Assembly (NCBI GenBank): GCA_013334825.1
Contig: JAAXWR010000003.1
Span: forward strand, 101,167-165,166
From: Candidatus Yonathbacteria bacterium
GTDB taxonomy: Bacteria; Patescibacteriota; Minisyncoccia; Phycocordibacterales; JACNGX01
Direction: 5' to 3'
DNA length: 64,000 nucleotides
The notes beneath the pieces were generated by a model. The model saw only the letters and a program-made list of their open reading frames with translations. It was not told the origin of the DNA and made no database searches. Below are positions 2,427-62,750 of this stretch, one piece after another (the first letter of the stretch is position 1; the number at the start of each line of letters is the position of its first letter). A program made the translations under genes and the position numbers.

Positions 2427-2954
2427 TCATATATCAGATGTACTGGAAAGGAAGTAATCTCTCATGTGTTCCCATGGAGATTCTTTACAAAATTTTGTCA
2501 TCACATGAAATGCTTTGTAGGGAATAGTCATTCCCGTATACGTATGTATAAGCCGAGGAGGATTCTCTTTGTAGCCGATACTTATGTGTGGTGTATAGTA
2601 ACGGCCTCCGATTTCGTGAAAAGATTTTTCAAAGAAAAAAGGACGTTTATCGAAGGGGGCTAAAGCAGTACAAATATTCATGTGCAGTTCCTGTAGAGCA
2701 CGGGGTTTTGATAATGCTAGTACATGCGTACATGCCCCATCTTTTTCGAACGTTTTTATTCCGATAATTTTTACGGTGAAGTACTCAATACAGATTTTTT
2801 CAAATGCCTTATGTATGAGTGGTATGTGTTCTTCAAGAATATTTGCACGTAGAATGGTCATATGAAGACCTGTCCAAGGAGGAGTTACTTCAGGCTCAGA
2901 GATAAGAAGATTGATAATCTCCGGACTCAGTTTGAGATATACAAGAATATGCAT
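2427..2954 (-). CDS. Second 2H phosphoesterase (LigT-like) paralog.
   Basis: HMTIL and HISIGY motifs. It lies in tandem with the 1532-2131 gene. Confidence 0.65.
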   Translation of the reverse strand: MHILVYLKLSPEIINLLISEPEVTPPWTGLHMTILRANILEEHIPLIHKAFEKICIEYFTVKIIGIKTFEKDGACTHVLALSKPRALQELHMNICTALAPFDKRPFFFEKSFHEIGGRYYTPHISIGYKENPPRLIHTYTGMTIPYKAFHVMTKFCKESPWEHMRDYFLSSTSDI

Positions 2955-3129
2955 GATGATTGACTTTTTCAGTTGAAAGGATTCTTTCGCAATCCTACAA
3001 AATATTGTCTATTTTTGCAACTAGTCCGCTCTGAGAATTGAGAACCTTATTTTTTCTTCCTTCCAAAATTTACCTAAGTTGGATGTGGATAACATGGACA
3101 ATGGAGACATGGAAACCAGAAAAAAATCG

Positions 3130-3155
3130 AGTGCGGGGCAGAATGCCCCGCACTG
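3130..3155 (-). terminator. Rho-independent terminator downstream of the YifB/ComM gene.
   Basis: GC hairpin gtgcggggcagaatgccccgcac followed on the minus strand by a T tract. AACTACGAAC-type low-complexity repeats flank it. Confidence 0.6.
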
Positions 3156-3204
3156 TTTGTTTTCAGTACTACGAACTACGAACTAAGAACTACGAACTTC
3201 GTCC

Positions 3205-4782
3205 TCACATTTCCCACACACGTGGTCTGTAGCGCAATGCTTCAAGGATGTGTGTTTCTTCCACAGAGTCTTTCCCTTCCATATCGGCGATGGTGCGTGC
3301 GACTTTGATGGTCTTGTGATATGCGCGGGCAGAGAGTCCTAGCGCGCGTGCCGAGTCAACAAGTGTCTCACGTGCATGTTCCGAGAGTGTTGCACGTTCG
3401 TCCACATCACGCGCTTTCATATCTGCGTTTTTCGTAACGTGTGCAAGGTCGGTAAAGCGCGCGCGTTGCACGTTACGTGCCAAAGCAACGCGTGCGCGGA
3501 CGGCATCACTTCCCTCTCCTCGTGGCGCGGCAGTGTCGAGTGTCGCGTGATCGACCGCATCTACATGAAGCCATATATCAATACGGTCCATAATGGGACC
3601 GGAAAGTTTTTTGCGGTATCCGATAAGTTGAGATTGTGTGCATGTGCAACGTTTCGCTGAGCCAAAGTTACCACATGGGCAAGGGTTCATCGCGGCGACG
3701 AGAATGACATTCGCGGGAAATGTCTCCGTTCCTTTCACGCGTGAGACGGTAACGATATTGTCTTCGAGCGGTTGACGAAGTGCCTCAATAACACGTTTAT
3801 CAAATTCGGGAAATTCATCCATGAAGAGTACTCCATGGTGCGCGAGGGTAACTTCTCCGGGTTTTGGAATTGTTCCTCCGCCGATAATAGAGGTATGTGA
3901 CGCAGTATGATGTGGCGCGCGAAAAGGCGCAGATATTTGCACAACATCTTCAAGTGTTCCCGCGACAGAATGGATGGCGGTTATTTCAAGTGCTTCTTCC
4001 ATGTCGAGAGGAGGGAGAAGCCCCGCGAATGCGCGTGCAAGCATAGTCTTGCCAGTCCCCGGTGGTCCATACATGCAGACATTGTGCCCACCTGCTGCCG
4101 CGATTTCTAAGCCCCGTTTCGCAGACTCTTGTCCGCGCACATCGGCCATGTCTGTCGCGCTCCGTGAAATGGTGGGTGTAATAGTGCGGTGTGGTTCAGC
4201 GACAAGTTCTGTTCGTGCAATATTCTTTCTCTGCCCATCTTTTTTTGTAGGATCTGTTTCATCAATATGTTCAACGATTTCGCCAAGTGTACGCACGCTA
4301 TACACAGCGATACCTTCAATGAGTGCAGCTTCGGCGGCATTTGCTTCGGGAACAAAAACGTCCGTGAAACCGCGTTTTTTTGCTTCACGCGCAAGAGGAA
4401 GGATGCCTTTTCCTGGACGGAGTCCTCCGTCAAGCGCAAGCTCTCCGAGAAAAAGCATATGCTCTGGGTTGCAAATAATTTGTTCATCTGCCAGTAAAAA
4501 ACCAATTGCCAGAGCGACATCAAAGATAGGTCCTTCTTTGCGAATATCTGCTGGAGCCAGTGAGATGATTGTTTTTTGCTGACTTGATTTGGGTGATGCA
4601 AAACCAATATTTTTTATTGCCGCGGAGACACGGTCGCGCGCTTCTTCAACTGCCTTGTCGGGGAGTCCGACGATAGAGAATGCATGCAATGTGTTTTTTA
4701 CGATATCTGTTTCAACACTGATAATATGCGCGGATAGTCCAACCGTCTGCGCCGCGTACACGCGTGAGAAGTGGTTTGTCAT
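3205..4782 (-). CDS. comM: YifB/ComM family Mg-chelatase-like AAA+ ATPase.
   Basis: Walker A (MYGPPGTGKTML) and a C-terminal ChlI-like domain. The 525-aa length is typical of YifB. Confidence 0.9.
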   Translation of the reverse strand: MTNHFSRVYAAQTVGLSAHIISVETDIVKNTLHAFSIVGLPDKAVEEARDRVSAAIKNIGFASPKSSQQKTIISLAPADIRKEGPIFDVALAIGFLLADEQIICNPEHMLFLGELALDGGLRPGKGILPLAREAKKRGFTDVFVPEANAAEAALIEGIAVYSVRTLGEIVEHIDETDPTKKDGQRKNIARTELVAEPHRTITPTISRSATDMADVRGQESAKRGLEIAAAGGHNVCMYGPPGTGKTMLARAFAGLLPPLDMEEALEITAIHSVAGTLEDVVQISAPFRAPHHTASHTSIIGGGTIPKPGEVTLAHHGVLFMDEFPEFDKRVIEALRQPLEDNIVTVSRVKGTETFPANVILVAAMNPCPCGNFGSAKRCTCTQSQLIGYRKKLSGPIMDRIDIWLHVDAVDHATLDTAAPRGEGSDAVRARVALARNVQRARFTDLAHVTKNADMKARDVDERATLSEHARETLVDSARALGLSARAYHKTIKVARTIADMEGKDSVEETHILEALRYRPRVWEM

Positions 4783-8927: not shown

Positions 8928-8972
8928 AACACTGCAATAGGCAGGGCGCAAGCCCCGCCTATTGCAGTGTTA
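8928..8972 (-). terminator. Long GC hairpin downstream of pnp.
   Basis: aacactgcaataggcagggcgcaagccccgcctattgcagtgtt forms a 14-bp stem, followed by AACTAAGAACTACGAAC low-complexity repeats. Confidence 0.5.
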
Positions 8973-9082
8973 ATTTTCAACTAAGAACTACGAACTAAGA
9001 ACTACGAACTCTGGCACAAAGCGTATACCGCCAATGCCCCTATCTTTTCTGACAACTAAGGCCTAATCAATAACAACTCATC

Positions 9083-14194: not shown

Positions 14195-14400
14195 ATCAAG
14201 CGTGCCCTGTACCCTACGTGGTGCAGGGAATCACGAAGCACGAATCAAGAATTAAGGGTTACGAAGTACGAACTTATACGAACATACGAAACGGGACGGG
14301 GATTAAGAAATATGAACATATGAATAACGAATATGTACGCCTGCCCCGCACCCTACGTGGCGTGCTGTGCATCCTACGTGGTGCATGGTGCTGGGGAATA
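14195..14400 (+). repeat. Cluster of REP-like palindromes (core ccctgtaccctacgtggtgcaggg) with low-complexity ACGAA/GAAAT repeats extending to about 14520.
   Basis: Imperfect palindromes with a G-T wobble on the + strand at about 14205-14230 and about 14340-14395. Related copies lie at 44955-44980 and 52580-52650. Confidence 0.6.
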
Positions 14401-18686: not shown

Positions 18687-20168
18687 CTAACTAACGCCAT
18701 ATTTTTTTCGTATTTGTTTGAGTTCTTTTTCTTCTTCCTCCTCTCTCTTTTCTTTTCCTTGCTCTCCCAGTATACGAAGTTCGTTGTCAGTAAGCCCGGT
18801 AAGTTCATGCGTACGTGCATCAAGATATAGTTCTGTATTTTTGTCTGGGTCATCGAGTACATCCTCCAGAAGCGCGTGAAGTATCCATCCCAGTCGCGGT
18901 CCCGCAGCTTCTTTGGTGAGTGTCATGATGCGATTGCCGTTGGTTTTGAGCATACCGACTGATACAGGTGCGCGCATGGCTTCTTCAACCATTGCCTCGT
19001 ATTTGCGGAGACGATACGGGCGCTCCTTTGGCCGACCCATGCCGATACGATCGCATGTGCGCAAATTCATAAGGTCACGCACCAGTTCAGGTCCGACATT
19101 GTGCACAATACGACGTACTGCCGAAAGTGTAATCTGTTCGATATCGGAAAAGAACATATGATAACGGACAAGCTTACGGACATTTTCTATCGTATCGCGT
19201 GGGTATTTAAGACATTCAAGGACATGTTTTGCTGTACGGGCACCCACAACTTCATGTCCGTAAAAGGTCGCATGTCCTTTAGAAGTATCATCTCGCCGTG
19301 TCGTCGGCTTTGCAACGTCGTGTAACAATGCAGCGAGACGGATATGAAGAGGAAATCCTTTATCTGCAGCATGTTGGAGTGTCCGCAAGCTATGTTCCCA
19401 CACCGGATAGATATGGTCTCCGTTCTGTGTAACGTTTATCCCCTCTTCGAGCTCAGGCATTATATGCTTTAGAAGCCCCGCGTCATGGGCTATTTGTATG
19501 CCAGCCATAGGTTGCGCGGACATAATCAACCGTGAAAACTCATCACGGATACGTTCCTTGGAAACATGAGAGAGAAGCTCTGCATGCTTCATGATAGCTT
19601 CTTGAGTTTTTGGAGCTATCGTGAAACCAAGTTCTGCTGACAATCGTATGGCACGAACCATGCGAAGTGCATCTTCAGTAAAACGCTCAGATGGGTCACC
19701 AACAGTAACGAGACGCATGTCCTTTATGTCCTTTTGTCCGTTATAAAGGTCAATCAAATGTCCTTTAGACGGATCATAAGCAATGGCATTGACCGTGAAG
19801 TCACGACGTTTCAAGTCATCTTCCAAATGTTCACTAAAGTGTACTTCATCCGGACGACGTTTGTCCGAGTACGTACCTTCAAGGCGATACGGCGTTACTT
19901 CAACGACACGAAGCGTTTGATCGTCTGTTTCATTCACTACACCGACGGTACCATATTCATTTTCATAAAATGTTTCAGTAAAGAGTGATTGAATGATATC
20001 GGGCGTGGCGTTCGTGGTAATGTCCCAGTCTTTTGGTTGTGCGCCACGAATAAGATCACGCACACATCCACCGACGAGGTAGGCCTCATGGCCAGCCTTT
20101 TGGAGCGTTTCGGTTACTATAAGAATCTCTTTAGGGATGGGGTAGCGTTTCGTCATGCTGTTAATCAT
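18687..20168 (-). CDS. cca: CCA-adding tRNA nucleotidyltransferase with a C-terminal HD domain.
   Basis: PolyA_pol head domain (GGCVRDLIRGAQPKDWDITT) and an HD-domain C-terminus. Confidence 0.9.
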   Translation of the reverse strand: MINSMTKRYPIPKEILIVTETLQKAGHEAYLVGGCVRDLIRGAQPKDWDITTNATPDIIQSLFTETFYENEYGTVGVVNETDDQTLRVVEVTPYRLEGTYSDKRRPDEVHFSEHLEDDLKRRDFTVNAIAYDPSKGHLIDLYNGQKDIKDMRLVTVGDPSERFTEDALRMVRAIRLSAELGFTIAPKTQEAIMKHAELLSHVSKERIRDEFSRLIMSAQPMAGIQIAHDAGLLKHIMPELEEGINVTQNGDHIYPVWEHSLRTLQHAADKGFPLHIRLAALLHDVAKPTTRRDDTSKGHATFYGHEVVGARTAKHVLECLKYPRDTIENVRKLVRYHMFFSDIEQITLSAVRRIVHNVGPELVRDLMNLRTCDRIGMGRPKERPYRLRKYEAMVEEAMRAPVSVGMLKTNGNRIMTLTKEAAGPRLGWILHALLEDVLDDPDKNTELYLDARTHELTGLTDNELRILGEQGKEKREEEEEKELKQIRKKYGVS

Positions 20169-20803: not shown

Positions 20804-20962
20804 AATGATATGTTTGATGATATGAGGTGGCTATTAGGATTCGAATACTATCTTCTAGAGCAGTAGACTTGTATGGTTATGATTATTAACATAATGCTAC
20901 GTTAAAAATCTAACACCCGCAACCCTATTTTACTGAAACCTAATTATGACAAGTGAAGTGGA

Positions 20963-20984
20963 CGCGAAGCAAGCAGTTGCTTCG
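20963..20984 (+). repeat. Hairpin gcgaagcaa-gcag-ttgcttcgc. It is the inverted-orientation counterpart of the hairpin gcgatgcaa-ctgc-ttgcatcgc at about 22945 and 33946, with a compensatory A-T to T-A swap.
   Basis: Direct sequence comparison. It lies adjacent to an antisense tRNA-Arg 3'-end fragment (tgtaggggcaccc). Confidence 0.6.
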
Positions 20985-20994
20985 CTGTAGGGGC

Positions 20995-21096
20995 ACCCAG
21001 CCCTACTTTCATGAGAGAGTCAGAATGTAAAATAATTTAAATACACAGAATAACCATAGGCAATCACACATACATACTATATGAAAATAGAGCTGG
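20995..21096 (-). mobile_element. MITE-like element, copy a. Terminal inverted repeats cccagccctactttcat / atgaaaatagagctggg flank an AT-rich core of about 68 bp.
   Basis: It shares its terminal inverted repeats with copies at 21123-21225, 28784-28882, 22836-22934 and 33836-33935. It is flanked by tRNA-Arg 3'-end fragments in opposite orientations (gtaggggcaccc ... gggtgcccctaccagg). Confidence 0.65.
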
Positions 21097-21122
21097 GTGC
21101 CCCTACCAGGAACACTCACTGC

Positions 21123-21225
21123 TCCCCAGCCCTAATTTCATCACGGGCAATCGTACATGTAACAACCGTATACACTGGCAAAAAATTATACATGTATATG
21201 CGTAATACATGAAAGTAGAGCTGGG
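21123..21225 (+). mobile_element. MITE-like element, copy b. It is the near-identical inverted copy of 28784-28882.
   Basis: The reverse complement matches 28784-28882 apart from a few substitutions. Terminal inverted repeats are cccagccctaatttcat / atgaaagtagagctggg. Confidence 0.7.
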
Positions 21226-21320
21226 TGTGCTCGCGAAACCCACGGTTTCGCGGACATCCTCCACGGGGAACCAGCAGGTTCCCCGACCCCCTCCGCGTTC
21301 GAATCCTGGTAGGGGCACAG
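21225..21320 (+). ncRNA. Structured 'X' element, copy 1: hairpin 1 (gcgaaac-ccacg-gtttcgc), a linker (catcctccac), hairpin 2 (ggggaacc-agca-ggttcccc), gaccccctc, then a pseudo T-arm (cgcgttcgaatcc) and a tRNA-Arg acceptor 3' fragment (tggtaggggcacag).
   Basis: Three copies exist: here, about 28693-28786 on the minus strand, and about 28536-28618 on the minus strand. Hairpin 1 stems covary (gcgaaac/gtttcgc versus cttatggaa/ttccataag) while the loop ccCNCgg is kept. It does not fold as a canonical tRNA. Confidence 0.45.
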
Positions 21321-21399
21321 TTTCCACAGCGCTTGCACTGTGACACAAAACACCACTTCTTTTTAAAGTGGTGTTTTGTGAAACTGTGCCCCTACCAGG
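21298..21399 (+). terminator. Inverted repeat gaatcctggtaggggcacagtttc ... gaaactgtgcccctaccaggattc (about 24-26 bp arms made of the tRNA-Arg 3' end) enclosing an inner hairpin caaaacaccact-tctttttaa-agtggtgttttg. This is a bidirectional terminator-like structure.
   Basis: Seen directly. The right arm is the 3' end of the minus-strand tRNA-Arg gene. Confidence 0.55.
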
Positions 21400-21458
21400 A
21401 TTCGAACCCAGAACGACGGTTCCGAAGACCGGCGTGATATCCATTTCACCATAGGGGC
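21387..21458 (-). tRNA. tRNA-Arg (anticodon TCG), no encoded CCA.
   Basis: Cloverleaf traced by hand: acceptor gccccta/taggggc, D stem gtga/tcac, anticodon loop cttcgga, T loop ttcgaat. There is one mismatch at the top of the anticodon stem. Confidence 0.8.
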
Positions 21459-22553: not shown

Positions 22554-22627
22554 GCGGGTATAGTTTAGTGGTAGAACGCGACCTTGCCATGGTTGAGACG
22601 GGAGTTCGATTCTCCCTACCCGCACCA
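22554..22627 (+). tRNA. tRNA-Gly (anticodon GCC) with an encoded CCA.
   Basis: gcgggtatagtttagtggtagaac...ttgccat...gggagttcgattctccctacccgcacca. The full cloverleaf was traced. Confidence 0.95.
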
Positions 22628-22811: not shown

Positions 22812-23092
22812 TAGTAACTCTGGGACGATTCTCCCCCAGCCCTACTTTCATAAAAAACGCATGTACAGTACGTGCGTTTTTTATGTGATTATCAGATATA
22901 TATTTTGGGGGTGTTTCATGAAAGTAGGGCTGGGTGCGGGTAGAGCGATGCAACTGCTTGCATCGCGCTTGCCTCGCCGAAACCTGTCTTTTGGAAAGGT
23001 GAAGGCGGGTGGAGAATCGAACCGAGCACCACTTTTGCAATGGCAAAAGTGGTGCTCGGGAAGCGAATTAGTAACCGCGGGACGATTCTCCC
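22812..23092 (+). mobile_element. Composite tRNA-Gly-associated element of about 235 bp bounded by about 25-bp direct repeats (ttagtaacNNNgggacgattctccc at about 22812-22836 and about 23068-23092). It contains a MITE-like hairpin (22836-22934), an anti-tRNA-Gly acceptor (tgcgggtagag), the hairpin gcgatgcaa-ctgc-ttgcatcgc, an antisense T-arm fragment (ggcgggtggagaatcgaacc), and a 13-bp-stem hairpin (gagcaccactttt...aaaagtggtgctc).
   Basis: Direct comparison with the second copy, which is fused directly to the 3' end of tRNA-Gly(TCC) at 33836-34020. The direct repeats resemble a degenerate tRNA-Gly T-arm (gggacgattctccc versus gggagttcgattctccc). Confidence 0.6.
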
Positions 23093-28446: not shown

Positions 28447-28519
28447 CGGGGCATAGTGTAACGGCTAACATGCCTGCTTTGGGAGCAGGTGACTCCCGGT
28501 TCGAATCCGGGTGCCCCGA
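28447..28519 (+). tRNA. tRNA-Pro (anticodon TGG), no encoded CCA.
   Basis: cggggcatagtgtaacggctaac...cctgctttgggagcagg...ggttcgaatccgggtgccccga. Cloverleaf traced. Confidence 0.95.
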
Positions 28520-28535
28520 ACGCAGTGAGGAGTAC

Positions 28536-28618
28536 TCGGATTCGAACCGAGGAGGGGGTCGGGGAACCTGCGGTTCCCCGTGTCGGAAGTCTGCGAAACC
28601 GAGGGTTTCGCAAGCGCA
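28536..28618 (-). ncRNA. Structured 'X' element, copy 3 (hairpin gcgaaac-cctcg-gtttcgc, hairpin ggggaacc-gca-ggttcccc, T-arm-like ctcggttcgaatccgag).
   Basis: It shares its architecture with 21225-21320. It lies immediately downstream of tRNA-Pro on the opposite strand. Confidence 0.45.
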
Positions 28619-28692
28619 GGGAAGGTGAGCGCATCCCGCGAACCTTCCCGAGCAGTAAGGTTCCGGGTGCCCCGAAAGAGCGGAGCGATTTC

Positions 28693-28786
28693 TGGACACC
28701 CGGATTCGAACGCGAAGGGGGTCGGGGAAACTGTAGTTTTCCCGTGGAGGAGGCTTATGGAACCGTGGGTTCCATAAGCGCACCCA
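28693..28786 (-). ncRNA. Structured 'X' element, copy 2 (hairpin cttatggaa-cccacgg-ttccataag, hairpin ggggaaaactacagttttcccc, pseudo T-arm cgcgttcgaatccgggtgtcc).
   Basis: Same order of elements as copy 1. Hairpin 1 stem differs completely while the loop and linker are conserved, which is covariation. Confidence 0.45.
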
Positions 28787-28882
28787 GCTCTACTTTCATG
28801 TATTACGCATATACACGTATAATTTTTTGCCAGTGTATACGGTTGTTATGTGTACGATTGCCCGTGATGAAAGTAGGGCTGG
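28784..28882 (-). mobile_element. MITE-like element, copy c (inverted copy of 21123-21225). It is followed by gagcagtgagtatt and a third copy of the tRNA-Pro 3' end (ccgggtgccccga at about 28898-28910).
   Basis: Near-identity of the reverse complement to copy b. The tRNA-Pro 3'-terminal 13 nt recur at 28506-28519, 28665-28677 and 28898-28910. A direct repeat gcagtgag(g)agta(c)t(c)gg lies at about 28522-28540 and about 28887-28900. Confidence 0.65.
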
Positions 28883-29052
28883 GGAGCAGTGAGTATTCCG
28901 GGTGCCCCGAAAAAACATGTTAGGAAATGCCGAATTTTATATTGCTTTACGGAACGAGGATTATCTTCACCGCCACTCCATCAAAAAACAATTACGGAAT
29001 AACCGTTTTTGAATAAAGATACTATATTCTGAACATGTAATTTTTTTATCTT

Positions 29053-33594: not shown

Positions 33595-33764
33595 TTTCCT
33601 CTCCAAAACCCGCCTCTGGCGGGTTTTGTGTTTTTTTGATAGGATAGGGAAGCGAGACGAGAAGTTAGAAATTAGGAATTAGAAATATGAAGAGAATATG
33701 TGATTTGGTCGTTGCGTAGTCCGTTCTACGAACTACGAACCATGAACTAAGAACTAGTAACAAC

Positions 33765-33837
33765 GCGGGTATAGTTTAGTGGTAGAACCTCTGCCTTCCA
33801 AGCAGATGACGGGAGTTCGATTCTCCCTACCCGCACC
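33765..33837 (+). tRNA. tRNA-Gly (anticodon TCC). CC is encoded but the terminal A is not.
   Basis: gcgggtatagtttagtggtagaac...ctgccttccaagcag...gggagttcgattctccctacccgcacc. Same body as tRNA-Gly(GCC) with a different anticodon arm. Confidence 0.95.
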
Positions 33838-34020
33838 CAGCCCTACTTTCATAAAAAACGCATGTACAGTACGTGCGTTTTTTATGTGATTATCAGATAT
33901 ATATTTTGGGGGTGTTTCATGAAAGTAGGGCTGGGTGCGGGTAGAGCGATGCAACTGCTTGCATCGCGCTTGCCTCGCCGAAACCTGTCTTTGAGACAGG
34001 TGAAGGCGGGTGGAGAATCA
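33836..34020 (+). mobile_element. Second copy of the tRNA-Gly-associated element, fused directly to the tRNA 3' end. It is truncated after ggcgggtggagaatc and is followed by a minus-strand terminator.
   Basis: It is more than 98% identical to 22836-23017. The inverted-repeat arms are ctacccgcacccagccctactttcat / atgaaagtagggctgggtgcgggtag (26 bp including the tRNA acceptor). Confidence 0.65.
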
Positions 34021-34057
34021 AATAAAAAACCGGCGCCCATAAGGGCGCCGTGACATT

Positions 34058-44954: not shown

Positions 44955-45060
44955 CCACGTAGGGTACATGGCAGGCTAACAACTTGTCCGCCCCGCCCTT
45001 TCTTAAGAAAGGACGGGGCGGACCCGCGCGCTCTGCGTGGCAGAGACGTCGCGGGAAACT
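44955..45060 (+). repeat. REP-like palindrome (ccatgtaccacgtagggtacatgg) followed by element copy B (the 38-bp palindrome plus the ...gagacgtcgcgggaaact tail).
   Basis: Copy B is about 90% identical to positions 1-80 over the palindrome and the tail. It lies immediately upstream of the tRNA-Arg(CCG) promoter. Confidence 0.7.
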
Positions 45061-50110: not shown

Positions 50111-50148
50111 AGATATATGTTAAGAATTAAGAATTTAAGAATAAGGAA

Positions 50149-50193
50149 TTAGAAATTAGAAATTAGAAATTAGAAATTAGAAATTAGAAATTT
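50149..50193 (+). repeat. Tandem repeat (AGAAATT) x6, preceded by degenerate GAATTAAGAAT units.
   Basis: Seen directly. It lies in the ppa upstream region. Confidence 0.8.
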
Positions 50194-52549: not shown

Positions 52550-53040
52550 GTTAGAGGAGATAGGGACAGATATTCGAATCAAGCGTGCCCTGCCCCCTAC
52601 ATGGCGTGCTGTGCATCCCACGTGGTGCACAGTGCAGGGAATCACGAAGCACGAATCAAGAAGAAAAACGATAGACGATGAAATAAGAAATATGAAGTTA
52701 GAAATATGGGGTTACGAAGTACGAATGAGTATGAACATACGAAACGGGACGGGAATTAAGAATACAAGACGAGAATTAAGAATAAGGAATTAAGAATCAA
52801 GAATACGGACGGACTGGAAATGAGGAGTAGGAATATGAAGAGGAAACTATAAAAAATTAAAGGTTAAAAAGAAAAAACTATAGACAATGAAATAAGAAAT
52901 ATGAAGACGAAAACTATAAACGAGAGACAATGAAATAAGAAAATAGAAATAAGGAATATGGGAAGAGAAAACTATAAACGATAAAAAAGAAGTCGTATTC
53001 GTATATTGTACACATTCGTTATTCGTAATCTTCGTAAGTG
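52550..53040 (+). repeat. Intergenic repeat cluster of about 490 bp: REP-like palindromes (gtgccctgccccctacatggcgtgctgtgcatcccacgtggtgcacagtgcaggg) followed by degenerate GAAATA/AAGAAT/ACTATAAAC low-complexity repeats.
   Basis: It is related to the 14195-14520 cluster (shared cgaatcaagcgtgccctg...gggaatcacgaagcacgaatcaagaa). Confidence 0.65.
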
Positions 53041-60413: not shown

Positions 60414-61505
60414 ATGCACATGCGAATACTGAGTATGTTTCGAAATATATATACAATCGTCATTGTGATGACGATTATATTGTGGTCAGGAGGAGTTTTT
60501 GCAAAAGAAACGGGGAGTATTCCTCTTAAGTCTGACACTCCATCTTCATCCTCTTCATCATACGAACTTCTTGAGCCTTCGCTTATTGGTGGAACAGAAA
60601 CGACTAACGCTTCAAACTATTTTGAAACAATATATGTATATGCTATTGGTGCCGCAGGTGTCCTCGCTGTTCTCATGTTTGCAATCGGTGGCATTCAGTA
60701 TATGTTCGGTGGCGCAAACCCCGCATCAAAGTCAAAAGGTGTCGCGCATATGTCCAATGCCGTATGGGGTATTATTCTTGCTCTCTCCGCGTATCTTATT
60801 TTGAATACTATCAATCCTGATTTGGTAGATTTACAAGTGACACTTCCTGAGGCGAGTATTGATGCGGAATATGCTCCTCCGCCTGCTGGAGATGTAGGAG
60901 AAAGTACTTCTGATATTCCTTCTACTGTTCCCACCGCCCTTCCTTCAGGGTGTAAAAATTATGTTGCCACGTTCAAGTCAATTGCGTCATCGACGGGCGT
61001 AAGCGGGTGTTTGCTATATGGTATTGCTTCTCAAGAATCTGGATGCAATCCAAATGCACAGAGTTCTTCAGGAGCGTGTGGTATGATGCAATTTTTACCA
61101 AAAACAGCAGGACAGAGTTGTGATTGGCTCAAAACACATCCAGAAGGAAGTATTTCACTTGCGGCACAGTATCTTTCGAGAAGTCGAAATGCTCTTGCGC
61201 GATATACAATGTTTAATATTGGAAGTAGATATACACAATCGAATACATCTGTTACTGTCGGTTCATATATTTACGATGCGGGAAACGACGATCTTATTGC
61301 TTCGTATAATGCAGGATATGGTACCAAATCAAGTAATGGAGGAAAGGGACCGTTTGCAGTTTCTGATTCATGTGCGTCCCGTAATGGAACGATTCCCGTG
61401 TGGCAATGTGATATAAACACTGCAGGATATGCACAAACACGCAATTATGTTCGTCGCGTTCAAACATATCAAGATCAGTGTGAATCATCAGGGGTACTGA
61501 AATAA
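60414..61505 (+). CDS. Secreted two-TM (VirB2/TrbC-like hairpin) module fused to a lytic transglycosylase (SLT) domain.
   Basis: Signal peptide. The module ...FETIYVYAIGAAGVLAVLMFAIGGIQYMFGGANPASKSKG...AVWGIILALSAYLILNTINP can be compared with VirB2 AIGISWMFGRASLG. The C-terminal SLT motifs are QESGCNPNAQSSSGACGMMQF and YNAG. Confidence 0.7.
   Translation: MHMRILSMFRNIYTIVIVMTIILWSGGVFAKETGSIPLKSDTPSSSSSSYELLEPSLIGGTETTNASNYFETIYVYAIGAAGVLAVLMFAIGGIQYMFGGANPASKSKGVAHMSNAVWGIILALSAYLILNTINPDLVDLQVTLPEASIDAEYAPPPAGDVGESTSDIPSTVPTALPSGCKNYVATFKSIASSTGVSGCLLYGIASQESGCNPNAQSSSGACGMMQFLPKTAGQSCDWLKTHPEGSISLAAQYLSRSRNALARYTMFNIGSRYTQSNTSVTVGSYIYDAGNDDLIASYNAGYGTKSSNGGKGPFAVSDSCASRNGTIPVWQCDINTAGYAQTRNYVRRVQTYQDQCESSGVLK
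60528..60869 (+). repeat. 342-bp segment duplicated at about 61890-62231 (about 99.7% identical, 1 mismatch seen). It encodes the shared N-terminal module of the two hydrolase paralogs.
   Basis: Direct comparison of the two DNA segments gave a single C/T difference. Confidence 0.85.
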
Positions 61506-61553: not shown

Positions 61554-62750
61554 ATGTTGCGAACCCATCTTTCTGTTTTTTTCTCCGGGCTGATTGCATG
61601 TTTGTTTTTTTTACCCGGTATTCTTTCTGCCGCAATTGTTTGGGAATTATATGACGTGTCTTCGAAGGCAACACTTGGAACGTATGATTCGTATACACAA
61701 TGTGATATTGCGCGTTCTTCTCGAAATATGGCTGGAGGAAATACCTCTTGTCGTTCTGTCAATACGCCAATTACTCCTGGTGAATCGTCATTATCGAATA
61801 TGCAAACAGAATTAGAAGACGCATTAGGTGAAAGCGCGAGAGTCAATTTGATATCTGAGCAACAGAAGACAAGTGGAGATACCGATCTCAAGTCTGACAC
61901 TCCATCTTCATCCTCTTCATCATATGAACTTCTTGAGCCTTCGCTTATTGGTGGAACAGAAACGACTAACGCTTCAAACTATTTTGAAACAATATATGTA
62001 TATGCTATTGGTGCCGCAGGTGTCCTCGCTGTTCTCATGTTTGCAATCGGTGGCATTCAGTATATGTTCGGTGGCGCAAACCCCGCATCAAAGTCAAAAG
62101 GTGTCGCGCATATGTCCAATGCCGTATGGGGTATTATTCTTGCTCTCTCCGCGTATCTTATTTTGAATACTATCAATCCTGATTTGGTAGATTTACAAGT
62201 GACACTTCCTGAGGCGAGTATTGATGCGGAAGAAGGAGAAGATTATGACGCAGAAGCGCCTACGGAAGCGGCTGGGTATTCTCCCACAGAAACAAACTCT
62301 TCAGGAGGTGGGTCATGTGGAGGTATGGTTGTTACTTCTGCAGTTCAGACGCAGTGTTCTTTGGCATCATCCGCGCTTTCAAGCATGCTTTCATGTATGC
62401 ATGCACGAGGTGTGACAGCGACTGTTACATCACTTACGTCAAGTAGAGTAGGGTCTGATCTTAGTGCATCACGTGCATGCTGTGGAAATGCAAGTTGTGT
62501 GCATGCGACGAACAGTTGTCATTACGGATGTGAGTACGGCTCATTTGCAGGAGAGCCAGGGTATTCTCATGCGGTGGATATTGCTATCAATGGTATGTCA
62601 CAAACAGAGTGGTGTGCTATCGCGAGTGCGGCGAAAAGTTGTGGGTCAGGAACAATATGGGGACCTGCGGATGCGTGTTCTGGTGCGGTCAAATATTGGG
62701 AAGGACATGGGACGCATTTACATGTAAGTACACGAAGTTGTAATCACTAG
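61554..62750 (+). CDS. Paralog carrying the same two-TM module fused to a Cys-rich M15-like (Hedgehog/DD-peptidase fold) zinc peptidase domain.
   Basis: The N-terminal 114 aa are identical to those of 60414-61505. The C-terminal ...SHAVDIAING...EGHGTHLHV is consistent with the H-x6-D / H-x-H zinc site of M15 peptidases. It has many Cys residues. Confidence 0.6.
   Translation: MLRTHLSVFFSGLIACLFFLPGILSAAIVWELYDVSSKATLGTYDSYTQCDIARSSRNMAGGNTSCRSVNTPITPGESSLSNMQTELEDALGESARVNLISEQQKTSGDTDLKSDTPSSSSSSYELLEPSLIGGTETTNASNYFETIYVYAIGAAGVLAVLMFAIGGIQYMFGGANPASKSKGVAHMSNAVWGIILALSAYLILNTINPDLVDLQVTLPEASIDAEEGEDYDAEAPTEAAGYSPTETNSSGGGSCGGMVVTSAVQTQCSLASSALSSMLSCMHARGVTATVTSLTSSRVGSDLSASRACCGNASCVHATNSCHYGCEYGSFAGEPGYSHAVDIAINGMSQTEWCAIASAAKSCGSGTIWGPADACSGAVKYWEGHGTHLHVSTRSCNH

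Follow-up and report, generated by a model that had tools for sequence, protein, structure and literature searches.

Background

Genomic islands and prophages that integrate in the 3' end of a tRNA or protein gene bring along a substitute for the displaced end, using Campbell-type attachment (att) sites with the T-loop among the sublocations of the crossover. Other att sites are folded single strands, namely, the attP(+) hairpin of CTXphi, on which XerCD acts, and the attC site of integrons, on which IntI acts. Patescibacteria, the Candidate Phyla Radiation (CPR), have tiny genomes that are thought to be poor in mobile elements. Here we report on a structured repeat, X, that is present in three copies in 64,000 nucleotides of DNA from Candidatus Yonathbacteria bacterium (contig JAAXWR010000003.1), a member of this group; this whole stretch is called the window and, unless a locus number is given, positions refer to it. 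An earlier note made from the sequence alone had offered three explanations for X, i.e., a tRNA-derived non-coding RNA (ncRNA), a recombination site, or part of a mobile element, and while the last two are close to the evidence the first is not. We propose, with a probability of roughly 0.6, that X is an element of about 100-300 bp without an open reading frame (ORF) that integrates site-specifically at conserved gene ends. In our best reading it combines a constant scaffold, swappable arms that match the target, and a replacement gene end, and it would be mobilised in trans by a putative enzyme. No description of X was found in full-text literature searches.

Results and discussion

Three X units beside two tRNA genes

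A covariance model made from 98 homologues and run with filters off over the window gave three strong matches only (79-83 bits), the next one having 17.7 bits. This bears out the three copies, with their positions and strands, that the earlier note had described: copy 1 in unit 1 beside tRNA-Arg(TCG), and the copies in units A and B beside tRNA-Pro(TGG) (Table 1). The copies are at most 88% identical to one another and have their parts in the order given in that note, namely, hairpin 1, a linker ending in CCTCCAC or CCGACAC, hairpin 2, GACCCCCTYC, TTCGAATCC, and a tRNA 3' fragment. The units are larger than the approximately 95 nt which had been implied, at about 150-230 nt, and the pairing 5' strand that was said to be lacking is present in each of them as a complementary 5' arm 110-210 nt upstream. 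The 3' part had been read as belonging to the 3' two-thirds of a class II tRNA; its T-loop and acceptor fragment are an inverted copy of what the adjoining tRNA gene has at its 3' end. In unit 1 this 3' arm runs, inverted, from the T-loop of tRNA-Arg through the 3' strands of its T-stem and acceptor to 7 nt of trailer, with 27 nt identical; its possible partners for pairing are the end of the tRNA gene and the 5' arm, the latter perfect across 14 bp. A self-contained T-arm exists in copy B only (CTCGG-TTCGAAT-CCGAG), where the 3' arm forms it locally with the preceding CTCGG, and not in the other two copies.

Judged from its sequence, the 5' arm of unit 1 is a direct repeat of the tRNA-Arg 3' end on the tRNA-sense strand, that is, the displaced att copy; on that strand TCCTGGTAGGGGCA stands in direct orientation at the tRNA-Arg end and at the outer edge of unit 1. 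The left-end linker that follows this arm corresponds to the RTCGCTCGCC-type left end of other subfamilies. At tRNA-Pro, TCCGGGTGCCCCG occurs three times in direct orientation on the + strand, at the tRNA end and at the outer edges of units B and A. Read in the sense of the tRNA, the layout is the tRNA, a short spacer or terminator, the inverted tRNA end, the core in reverse complement, and a direct copy of the tRNA end, and this layout is present twice in tandem at tRNA-Pro.

An orthologous tRNA-Pro locus, L113, has unit A in common with the window and does not have unit B. In its tRNA-proximal slot, which is that of unit B in the window, there is an unrelated element of ~190 bp with 22-nt terminal inverted repeats (AGAACCTGACCAGAAATCTCA; L113 ~2930-3130). 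This difference in the proximal slot fits new insertions landing beside the gene. The 3' arm of unit A is closer to the tail of the L113 tRNA-Pro than to that of the window's own tRNA-Pro. Between these orthologous units hairpin 2 has been exchanged wholesale for a different, perfectly paired stem (window 28724-28743; L113 3150-3170) and the rest, i.e., hairpin 1, linker, tract, and 3' arm, is nearly identical; such a swap suggests that modules are exchanged among copies.

X units lie at a fixed point of tRNA genes

A scan with the core motif over one genome per species gave at least 118 loci and, except for two chance matches, all are in metagenome-assembled genomes (MAGs) of Patescibacteria/CPR. 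On this sequence evidence X is a large, Patescibacteria-restricted family with hundreds of loci in several CPR classes. The proportions that follow are rough, because the sampling was by exact sequence patterns, among the matches listed; MAG quality varies. A convergent tRNA gene is at most 150 nt away in 90 of 122 units, and tRNAs of every isotype serve as targets. In 62/87 units the 5' arm is antisense to the last 15 nt of the neighbouring tRNA with at most one mismatch, and this includes the CCA if it is gene-encoded. In 35 of 69 units the inner edge of the repeat coincides with the T-loop|TCC junction, and in most of the others it is at most 3 nt off. The outer edge is 0-3 nt from the tRNA 3' end in 57 of the 69 and 4-8 nt from it in four more, and in the remaining eight the identity extends 14-25 nt or more beyond the tRNA 3' end; three of these eight (L028, one of two L060 entries, and L071) are nearly identical on either side; these are duplicated tRNAs and not true trailer extensions. 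A fixed inner edge together with a variable outer edge is att-like and is not what a fixed-length duplication would give. The 3' arm has a mean contiguous match of 7.0 nt (range 3-23 nt) with its own tRNA versus 3.6 nt with other tRNAs, and matches of at least 7 nt are found in 46% of comparisons with the own tRNA versus 2% with other tRNAs. A terminator-like hairpin follows many units.

In these respects X resembles the tRNA-targeting islands and prophages. The direct repeat stretches between a fixed crossover in the T-loop/T-stem and the 3' end of the gene, the target gene stays intact by means of the supplied end, insertions accrete in tandem at one tRNA, and the targets are conserved. By the standards for tyrosine-integrase islands, X has the flanking direct repeat of a tRNA 3' end and lacks an internal integrase gene. 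X also differs from islands and prophages in being 100-300 bp with neither integrase nor cargo, in having one core at many unrelated targets, in carrying an inverted copy of the target, and in that one X target is a 5' end with a new ribosome-binding site (RBS) and start codon.

Targets other than tRNA genes and replacement gene ends

Since the first search pattern demanded a T-loop, a second metagenome scan was made with hairpin 2 and the tract only, giving an unbiased sample of 116 units. A canonical T-loop is present in 33 of these and a T-loop-like segment in 14, while 69 have none; a convergent tRNA is within 200 nt in 44 of the 105 evaluable units. The T-loop, being found in only ~40% of units sampled in this manner, is not an intrinsic tRNA-like domain of X as had been supposed. 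In units without it, the same position can hold an inverted copy of another target gene. With Pfam these targets were identified as the 3' end of a Mur ligase gene (L222 and L229), of the ribosomal protein L11 gene (L135, L140, and L181), and of the ribosomal protein L28 gene (L160), and as the 5' end of a LepA-like GTPase gene (L166). The layout at these genes is a short target segment S1, the left end, the core, inverted S1, a stretch L, and S1 again joined to the gene body, where stretch L is the last codons and stop of the gene or, in L166, a new RBS and start codon. At a threshold of 11 or more matches in 12, the inverted arm was found in 15 units of the unbiased sample and the third copy in 23, versus none in controls in both cases.

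In five out of five protein cases where the target is a 3' end, the displaced copy can be translated in frame into an alternative C-terminus that ends at a stop codon. The functional and displaced ends are, respectively, KLVDKF* and RLVDKF* in L229, KLAGEF* and KLVDRF* in L222, MGIEIKN* and MGIEVRG* in L135, KCIKSFAKV* and KCIKAMAKV* in L160, and MGIDVS* and MGIDVN* in L181. Six of the seven nucleotide differences between the two gene ends of L229 are synonymous. Duplication of the target and neutral decay of one copy would not produce this pattern, which is expected if the element imported a gene end with a past as coding sequence in another place. The units at L135 (L11) and L222 (Mur ligase) have the same core subtype over the whole length between left end and tract, including an extra hairpin nested in hairpin 1, and their arms are unrelated to each other, each fitting its own target.

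The structured core and the case for an RNA

In hairpin 1 the earlier note had seen a full compensatory replacement, and this is correct: the stem is cgcgaaacc/ggtttcgcg in copy 1 and tgcgaaacc/ggtttcgca in unit B versus cttatggaacc/ggttccataag in unit A. What was called a conserved 7-nt loop, ccCNCgg, is really a 3-nt loop with two closing C-G pairs. Hairpin 2, to which the stem ggggaacc had been ascribed, is gggaaaac/gtttcccc in unit A, where it differs from the other two copies and is compensated; it belongs to the constant core and is not a class II variable arm. Compensatory change is family-wide. Among the 98 homologues, 91.2% of the cells in hairpins 1 and 2 are paired versus 79.6% in shuffles (0/500), cells with double changes number 203 versus 68.8 in shuffles, and slid controls drop to 23-65%. 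These pair counts uphold the proposal that secondary structure is under selection. Covariation was assessed by counting pairs in an explicit structure; when RNAalifold was run on the raw MAFFT alignment, the placement of gaps let it recover four pairs only.

The tract after hairpin 2 mirrors the purine strand of hairpin 2 in parallel sense. In 207 unique cores AAA goes with TTC or TTT, AAC with TCC in 64/68, and AGA with TCT in 4/4, and this covariation covers the three tracts in the window. An intramolecular triplex or some other pairing could underlie it. A simple triple-helix rule was rejected because no single register suits all subtypes, though the covariation is real.

If X were a functional structured ncRNA, either a tRNA mimic or an antisense or guide RNA, its layout would reflect gene function and not mobility. 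In the guide form, the 5' arm would base-pair with the adjoining tRNA or mRNA at its 3' end, and the other arm would keep the guide masked until use. The strong conservation of structure with its compensatory changes would suit such an RNA, as would the single-stranded motifs CCUCCAC and GACCCCCU, which are highly conserved in the family, the whole-unit fold z-scores of the three window units versus shuffles (-7.9, -4.2, and -8.4), the terminator-like hairpin after many units, and the perfect antisense match of the 5' arm to the tRNA 3' end. However, helices 1 and 2 have GU in 37 and AC in 41 of 1633 cells and the closing stems have GT in 2 and AC in 5, and a lack of bias for G·U over A·C is atypical of structured RNAs. 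The data therefore do not specifically support RNA, and Watson-Crick intrastrand pairing of DNA fits equally well. These counts are from helices only, a whole-region comparison of sense and antisense folds having been set aside because purine-rich antisense linkers confound it. Moreover, no sigma-70-like promoter was found upstream of the window units on the sense strand, whereas tRNA-Pro has one, and the tandem units are only 8-14 nt apart. ARAGORN for tRNA and tmRNA and the Rfam model RF00005 called five real tRNAs in the window and no X unit even at E<=10. The Rfam check of the X intervals that the earlier note had suggested matched no family in Rfam 15, either at the gathering score or at E<=10, and Rfam on 15 related loci gave tRNAs only. 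Finally, exact direct repeats that include CCA and sometimes the trailer, together with displaced ends that are compatible with an ORF, demand insertion of DNA whatever an RNA does. We consider it unlikely that X is explained as an ncRNA.

Known tRNA-like RNAs, namely, the tRNA-like domain of tmRNA, YrlA/Y RNA, viral tRNA-like structures, and the RNase P minihelix, are similar to X in that the closing stem and TTCGAAU of its tRNA subclass imitate an acceptor/T minihelix. They differ in that X is missed by ARAGORN and Rfam and most of the family has no T-loop, and in X the mimicry is explained by copying of the target.

A model for integration and the evidence against it

That X inserts site-specifically at gene ends, the repeat having a fixed inner edge, is shown by the data, and likewise its constant folded core, exchangeable arms, replacement gene end, and tandem accretion. 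Integration is well supported and the mechanism we infer is as follows. The constant core is made up of the left end, variable hairpin 0, hairpin 1, the CCUCCAC-type linker, hairpin 2, and the GACCCCCU tract, and the target-specific module of an inverted copy (IR) of S1 plus a replacement for the terminal portion of the gene, stretch L, which is trailer and terminator for tRNAs and last codons with stop, or RBS with start, for proteins. Campbell-type recombination inside S1 would integrate the element and give the order gene body, S1, L, IR, core, and displaced S1 with the original gene end. In the window S1 is the T-stem/acceptor 3' segment of tRNA-Arg(TCG) for one unit and of tRNA-Pro(TGG) for two tandem units, of which the newer would be the one adjoining the tRNA; the T-arm and acceptor fragment of the earlier note is the IR, and the complementary 5' arm is displaced S1. 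The excised form would be a small circle, probably single-stranded, in which S1 would pair with the IR and make a duplex att site beside the folded core, giving a dumbbell like the folded CTXphi attP or integron attC. A recombinase encoded elsewhere would recognise the core and supply the chemistry. The folds of the window units and the arm matches reveal that potential for intrastrand pairing is present in the units.

As with CTXphi attP and attC, a duplex site would be rebuilt when two inverted segments of one strand pair, stem structure and not sequence is conserved, tandem arrays have the newest unit beside a fixed site, and ORF-less cassettes exist. Unlike these sites, X does not target dif or attI, no link to IntI or Xer was shown, and its paired segment is a copy of the target that differs by locus. 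The RYYYAAC...GTTRRRY boxes of attC are absent in non-tRNA units, GTTCGAW / ATCGAAC-like boxes being present in the tRNA subclass of X only, and no integrase was found in the neighbourhood of X loci.

Several points weigh against this reading. No recombinase or other enzyme could be tied to X among the neighbouring ORFs of 116 loci; when the ORFs within 3.5 kb of these loci were clustered, the best family was in nine loci only. No excised circle or empty site was seen, and exact-protein look-ups gave identical contigs of the same strain only. Arms are clear in only about 26-43% of the units in the unbiased sample, and the argument from gene ends stands on a handful of loci, L229 alone being strong. 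There is no near-identical pair among the sampled copies and no sign of recent bursts. The single-stranded folded-att step is an analogy which the wobble counts neither support nor refute, and the model leaves unexplained how the inverted copy of a new target originates on retargeting. An ORF-bearing autonomous parent was not found among units with well-defined arms, which are 95-293 nt, and distant 5' arms that could have marked one were rejected as artefacts of contig-edge indexing, T-loops of other tRNAs, and AT-rich strings. No copy of X was found in 2.9 million viral contigs.

Other routes to the same layout

In RNA- or DNA-guided programmable integration, the IR and S1 arms would pick the site by base pairing and a generic trans-encoded recombinase or nuclease would bind the core only, a logic like that of a bridge RNA or the IS608 guide in an ORF-less form. 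Unrelated arms are joined to the same core subtype at two targets, as this would predict, and the match of the 3' arm with its own target starts on the core-proximal side and extends outward. Furthermore, the targets (tRNA tails of all isotypes, L11, L28, Mur ligase, and the GTPase) are unrelated in sequence and therefore a protein cannot be reading S1. The known guide elements, i.e., IS110/IS1111 with bridge or seek RNAs, IS200/IS605, and omega RNAs, also join a constant scaffold to variable target-matching segments. Unlike them, X has no associated protein, there being no recombinase, TnpA, TnpB, or IscB ORF in or next to its units, and the window units have no promoter-like site upstream. 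The arms of X are mutually complementary and span one segment, whereas known bridge RNAs bind two site halves. The long direct repeat takes in the gene end and, with an independently evolved gene end, it indicates recombination in a homologous segment and not guide-directed cut-and-paste. Guided integration, too, is an improbable account of X.

Passive spread has still less to commend it. Here X would be a neutral or mildly useful allele, e.g., a terminator or insulator, that spreads by DNA uptake and RecA homologous recombination, with the duplicated gene end as homology on both sides and the inverted arm arising later through template-switch (quasi-palindrome) correction, for which shared short repeats like the T-loop would be the seed. 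Neighbouring ORFs yielded no dedicated enzyme, the conserved direct repeats of the gene end could be used as both homology arms, the 3'-arm identity has a variable length from the shared T-loop (3-23 nt) as template-switch conversion predicts, and in copy 1 the identity reaches into the non-functional trailer. Passive spread leaves unaccounted for the sharp inner edge at T-loop|TCC across isotypes and phyla, the inverted arm at non-tRNA targets that have no pre-existing shared repeat, and the conservation and covariation of the core, and we judge it very unlikely. Lastly, the idea that X is a functionless, decayed tRNA pseudogene or class II tRNA fragment, to which the T-loop sequence, the acceptor 3' strand, and the complete T-arm of copy B could point, is almost certainly wrong, since the core is conserved with covariation over hundreds of loci in several CPR classes, there is no equivalent of a D-arm or anticodon-arm, X is called neither by ARAGORN nor by the Rfam tRNA model, and other gene fragments replace the tRNA-like part in ~60% of units, these non-tRNA units effectively refuting it.

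Comparison with miniature elements and rejected origins

X is similar to miniature inverted-repeat transposable elements (MITEs), palindrome-associated transposable elements (PATEs), and cis-mobilizable elements (CIMEs), which are non-autonomous and derive from IS elements or integrative elements, in being small, ORF-less, multi-copy, hairpin-rich, and presumably mobilised in trans. It differs in that it has no terminal inverted repeats of its own, no fixed-length duplication, and no autonomous parent that was found, and in that it targets conserved gene ends precisely and replaces the gene end. Its ends, RTCGCTCGCC... and ...GACCCCCT, are not inverted repeats, and the flanking repeat is variable in length with one fixed edge.

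Three other origins were considered and rejected. A fixed-length target-site duplication of the transposase or casposase-like kind (15 bp) does not fit because the outer edge of the repeat varies and the L229 ends differ nearly only synonymously. A tRNA-primed, primer-binding-site-type retroelement does not fit because the repeat tracks the gene sequence (e.g., ...CCCCGAA) and not the mature CCA, and no recurrent reverse transcriptase is linked. For a retron or diversity-generating retroelement there is no recurrent neighbouring protein, hence no consistently linked reverse transcriptase, and the differences in gene ends are of the synonymous type and not A-specific.

Table 1. Parts of the three X units in the window and their target genes
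Feature	Position	Strand	Remarks
Unit 1, covariance-model match (copy 1)	21222-21312	+	83.2 bits
Unit 1, 5' arm TGCCCCTACCAGGA	21098-21111	+	antisense to last 14 nt of tRNA-Arg(TCG); exact-match scan, sequence
Unit 1, left-end linker ACACTCACTGCTC	21112-21124	+	resembles degenerate antisense T-loop
Unit 1, hairpin 0, long palindromic Y module, ends CCCAGCCCTAATTTCAT / ATGAAAGTAGAGCTGGG	21125-21225	+	variable position of the family; short in copy B
Unit 1, hairpin 1 cgcgaaacc-cac-ggtttcgcg	21232-21252	+	
Unit 1, conserved pyrimidine linker GACATCCTCCAC	21253-21264	+	
Unit 1, hairpin 2 ggggaacc-agca-ggttcccc	21265-21284	+	
Unit 1, conserved tract GACCCCCTCCGCG	21285-21297	+	co-varies with hairpin 2
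Unit 1, 3' arm	21298-21324	+	repeat I12, 33 nt at 94%
Unit 1, loop region L, inverted copy to tRNA	21325-21379		bidirectional terminator-like hairpin ~21345-21379
Target gene tRNA-Arg(TCG)	21386-21458	-	gene-proximal att copy is 3' end, 21387-21400
Unit A, covariance-model match	28696-28786	-	78.9 bits
Unit A, 5' arm TTCGGGGCACCCGGA	28897-28911	-	direct repeat of tRNA-Pro 3' end
Unit A, left-end linker ATACTCACTGCTC	28884-28896	-	then hairpin 0 (Y module) at 28783-28883
Unit A, core	28711-28778	-	hairpin 1 28754-28778, linker CCTCCTCCAC, hairpin 2, tract GACCCCCTTCGCG 28711-28723
Unit A, hairpin 2 gggaaaac-taca-gtttcccc	28724-28743	-	
Unit A, 3' arm TTCGAATCCGGGTGTCCAGA	28691-28710	-	inverted, slightly diverged tRNA-Pro end; then 14-nt spacer (to 28677)
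Unit B, covariance-model match	28532-28622	-	82.5 bits
Unit B, 5' arm TTCGGGGCACCCGGA	28662-28676	-	direct repeat of tRNA-Pro 3' end
Unit B, body	28547-28661	-	linker ACCTTACTGCTC, short hairpin 0 28619-28649, hairpin 1 28592-28612
Unit B, body continued		-	linker GACTTCCGACAC, hairpin 2 28561-28579, tract GACCCCCTCCTCGG 28547-28560
Unit B, 3' arm TTCGAATCCGAGTACTCC	28529-28546	-	inverted, diverged copy of tRNA end; then 8-nt spacer (to 28521)
Target gene tRNA-Pro(TGG)	28447-28519	+	serves unit B (proximal) and unit A (distal); proximal att copy 28506-28520

Other repeats in the window

The Y module that forms hairpin 0 in units 1 and A is one of five palindromic modules of ~100 nt with ends CCCAGCCCTACTTTCAT / ATGAAAGTAGGGCTGGG and variable interiors (20996-21097, 21125-21225, 22835-22934, 28783-28883, and 33836-33935); similar ends are present in L114 and L150. 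Two more are beside tRNA-Gly genes, where each contains a bidirectional terminator-like hairpin and is placed between the tRNA end and the inverted copy of that end. A second family with a different core, Z, is beside both tRNA-Gly genes (22835-23021 and 33836-34022, a 187-nt repeat that is 98% identical). Z begins with the inverted tRNA-Gly 3' end, is also present in L114, and is undetected by the X model; its hairpin GCGAWGCAACTGCTTGCWTCGC has a compensatory A-T/T-A change, with hairpins at 20964, 22945, and 33946. An isolated T-loop-like fragment, ttcgaatcctaatagcc, at 20829-20845 (-), after ACTGCTC at 20858-20864, may be what is left of an older unit on the far side of the X/Y/Z stack at tRNA-Arg.

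The CCA is not gene-encoded in tRNA-Arg(TCG) at 21386, tRNA-Pro at 28447, and tRNA-Gly(TCC) at 33765, and it is encoded in tRNA-Gly(GCC) at 22554; a CCA-adding enzyme gene (PolyA_pol head and HD domains) is at 18687-20168 (-), ~1 kb from unit 1. Many intergenic regions contain tandem heptamers (ACGAACT, GAAATTA, and variants), frequently a short way upstream of a tRNA gene (3163-3212, 8961-9010, 14253-14288, 33720-33769, 50132-50190, and 52681-52978). A GC-rich perfect palindrome, GTCCGCCCCGCCCTTTCTTAAGAAAGGGCGGGGCGGAC, is present twice (1-38 and 44986-45023), the second time ~100 nt upstream of tRNA-Arg(CCG), and a 300-nt direct repeat with 99% identity is at 60524-60823 and 61886-62185, 1362 nt apart.

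Conclusions

An integrative element that restores the end of its target gene is known already; what appears to be new is the ORF-less size of 100-300 bp, the core that is common to unrelated targets, the inverted copy of the target, and the spread across the CPR. There are practical consequences. Two Logan contigs of the same strain (L119 and L121), 100% identical to the window, end inside the hairpin-0 module at window positions 21198 and 28810, which shows that these elements fragment assemblies; X units break short-read assemblies and also yield pseudo gene ends and tRNA fragments that can mislead annotation. The scaffold with its swappable arms suggests retargetable integration, and the enzyme could reveal a new recombination chemistry and a compact tool for genome engineering. 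We mention tentatively, as an idea that is rather doubtful, that X is a mobile element of a new class, one whose choice of target lies wholly in nucleic acid: a generic trans-acting enzyme would read a folded scaffold of ~90 nt, and the arm pair, a copy of the target, could be re-aimed at any conserved gene end (tRNAs of all isotypes, rplK, rpmB, the Mur ligase gene, and the lepA-like gene) with a replacement end each time. If true, this would be a natural programmable integration cassette that is free of protein genes, possibly working via a single-stranded or triplex-containing intermediate. Within the CPR, X is one non-coding family that flanks many tRNA genes and several essential protein genes, and it shows how a gene-less element of ~200 bp can colonise essential genes harmlessly by bringing a spare gene end.

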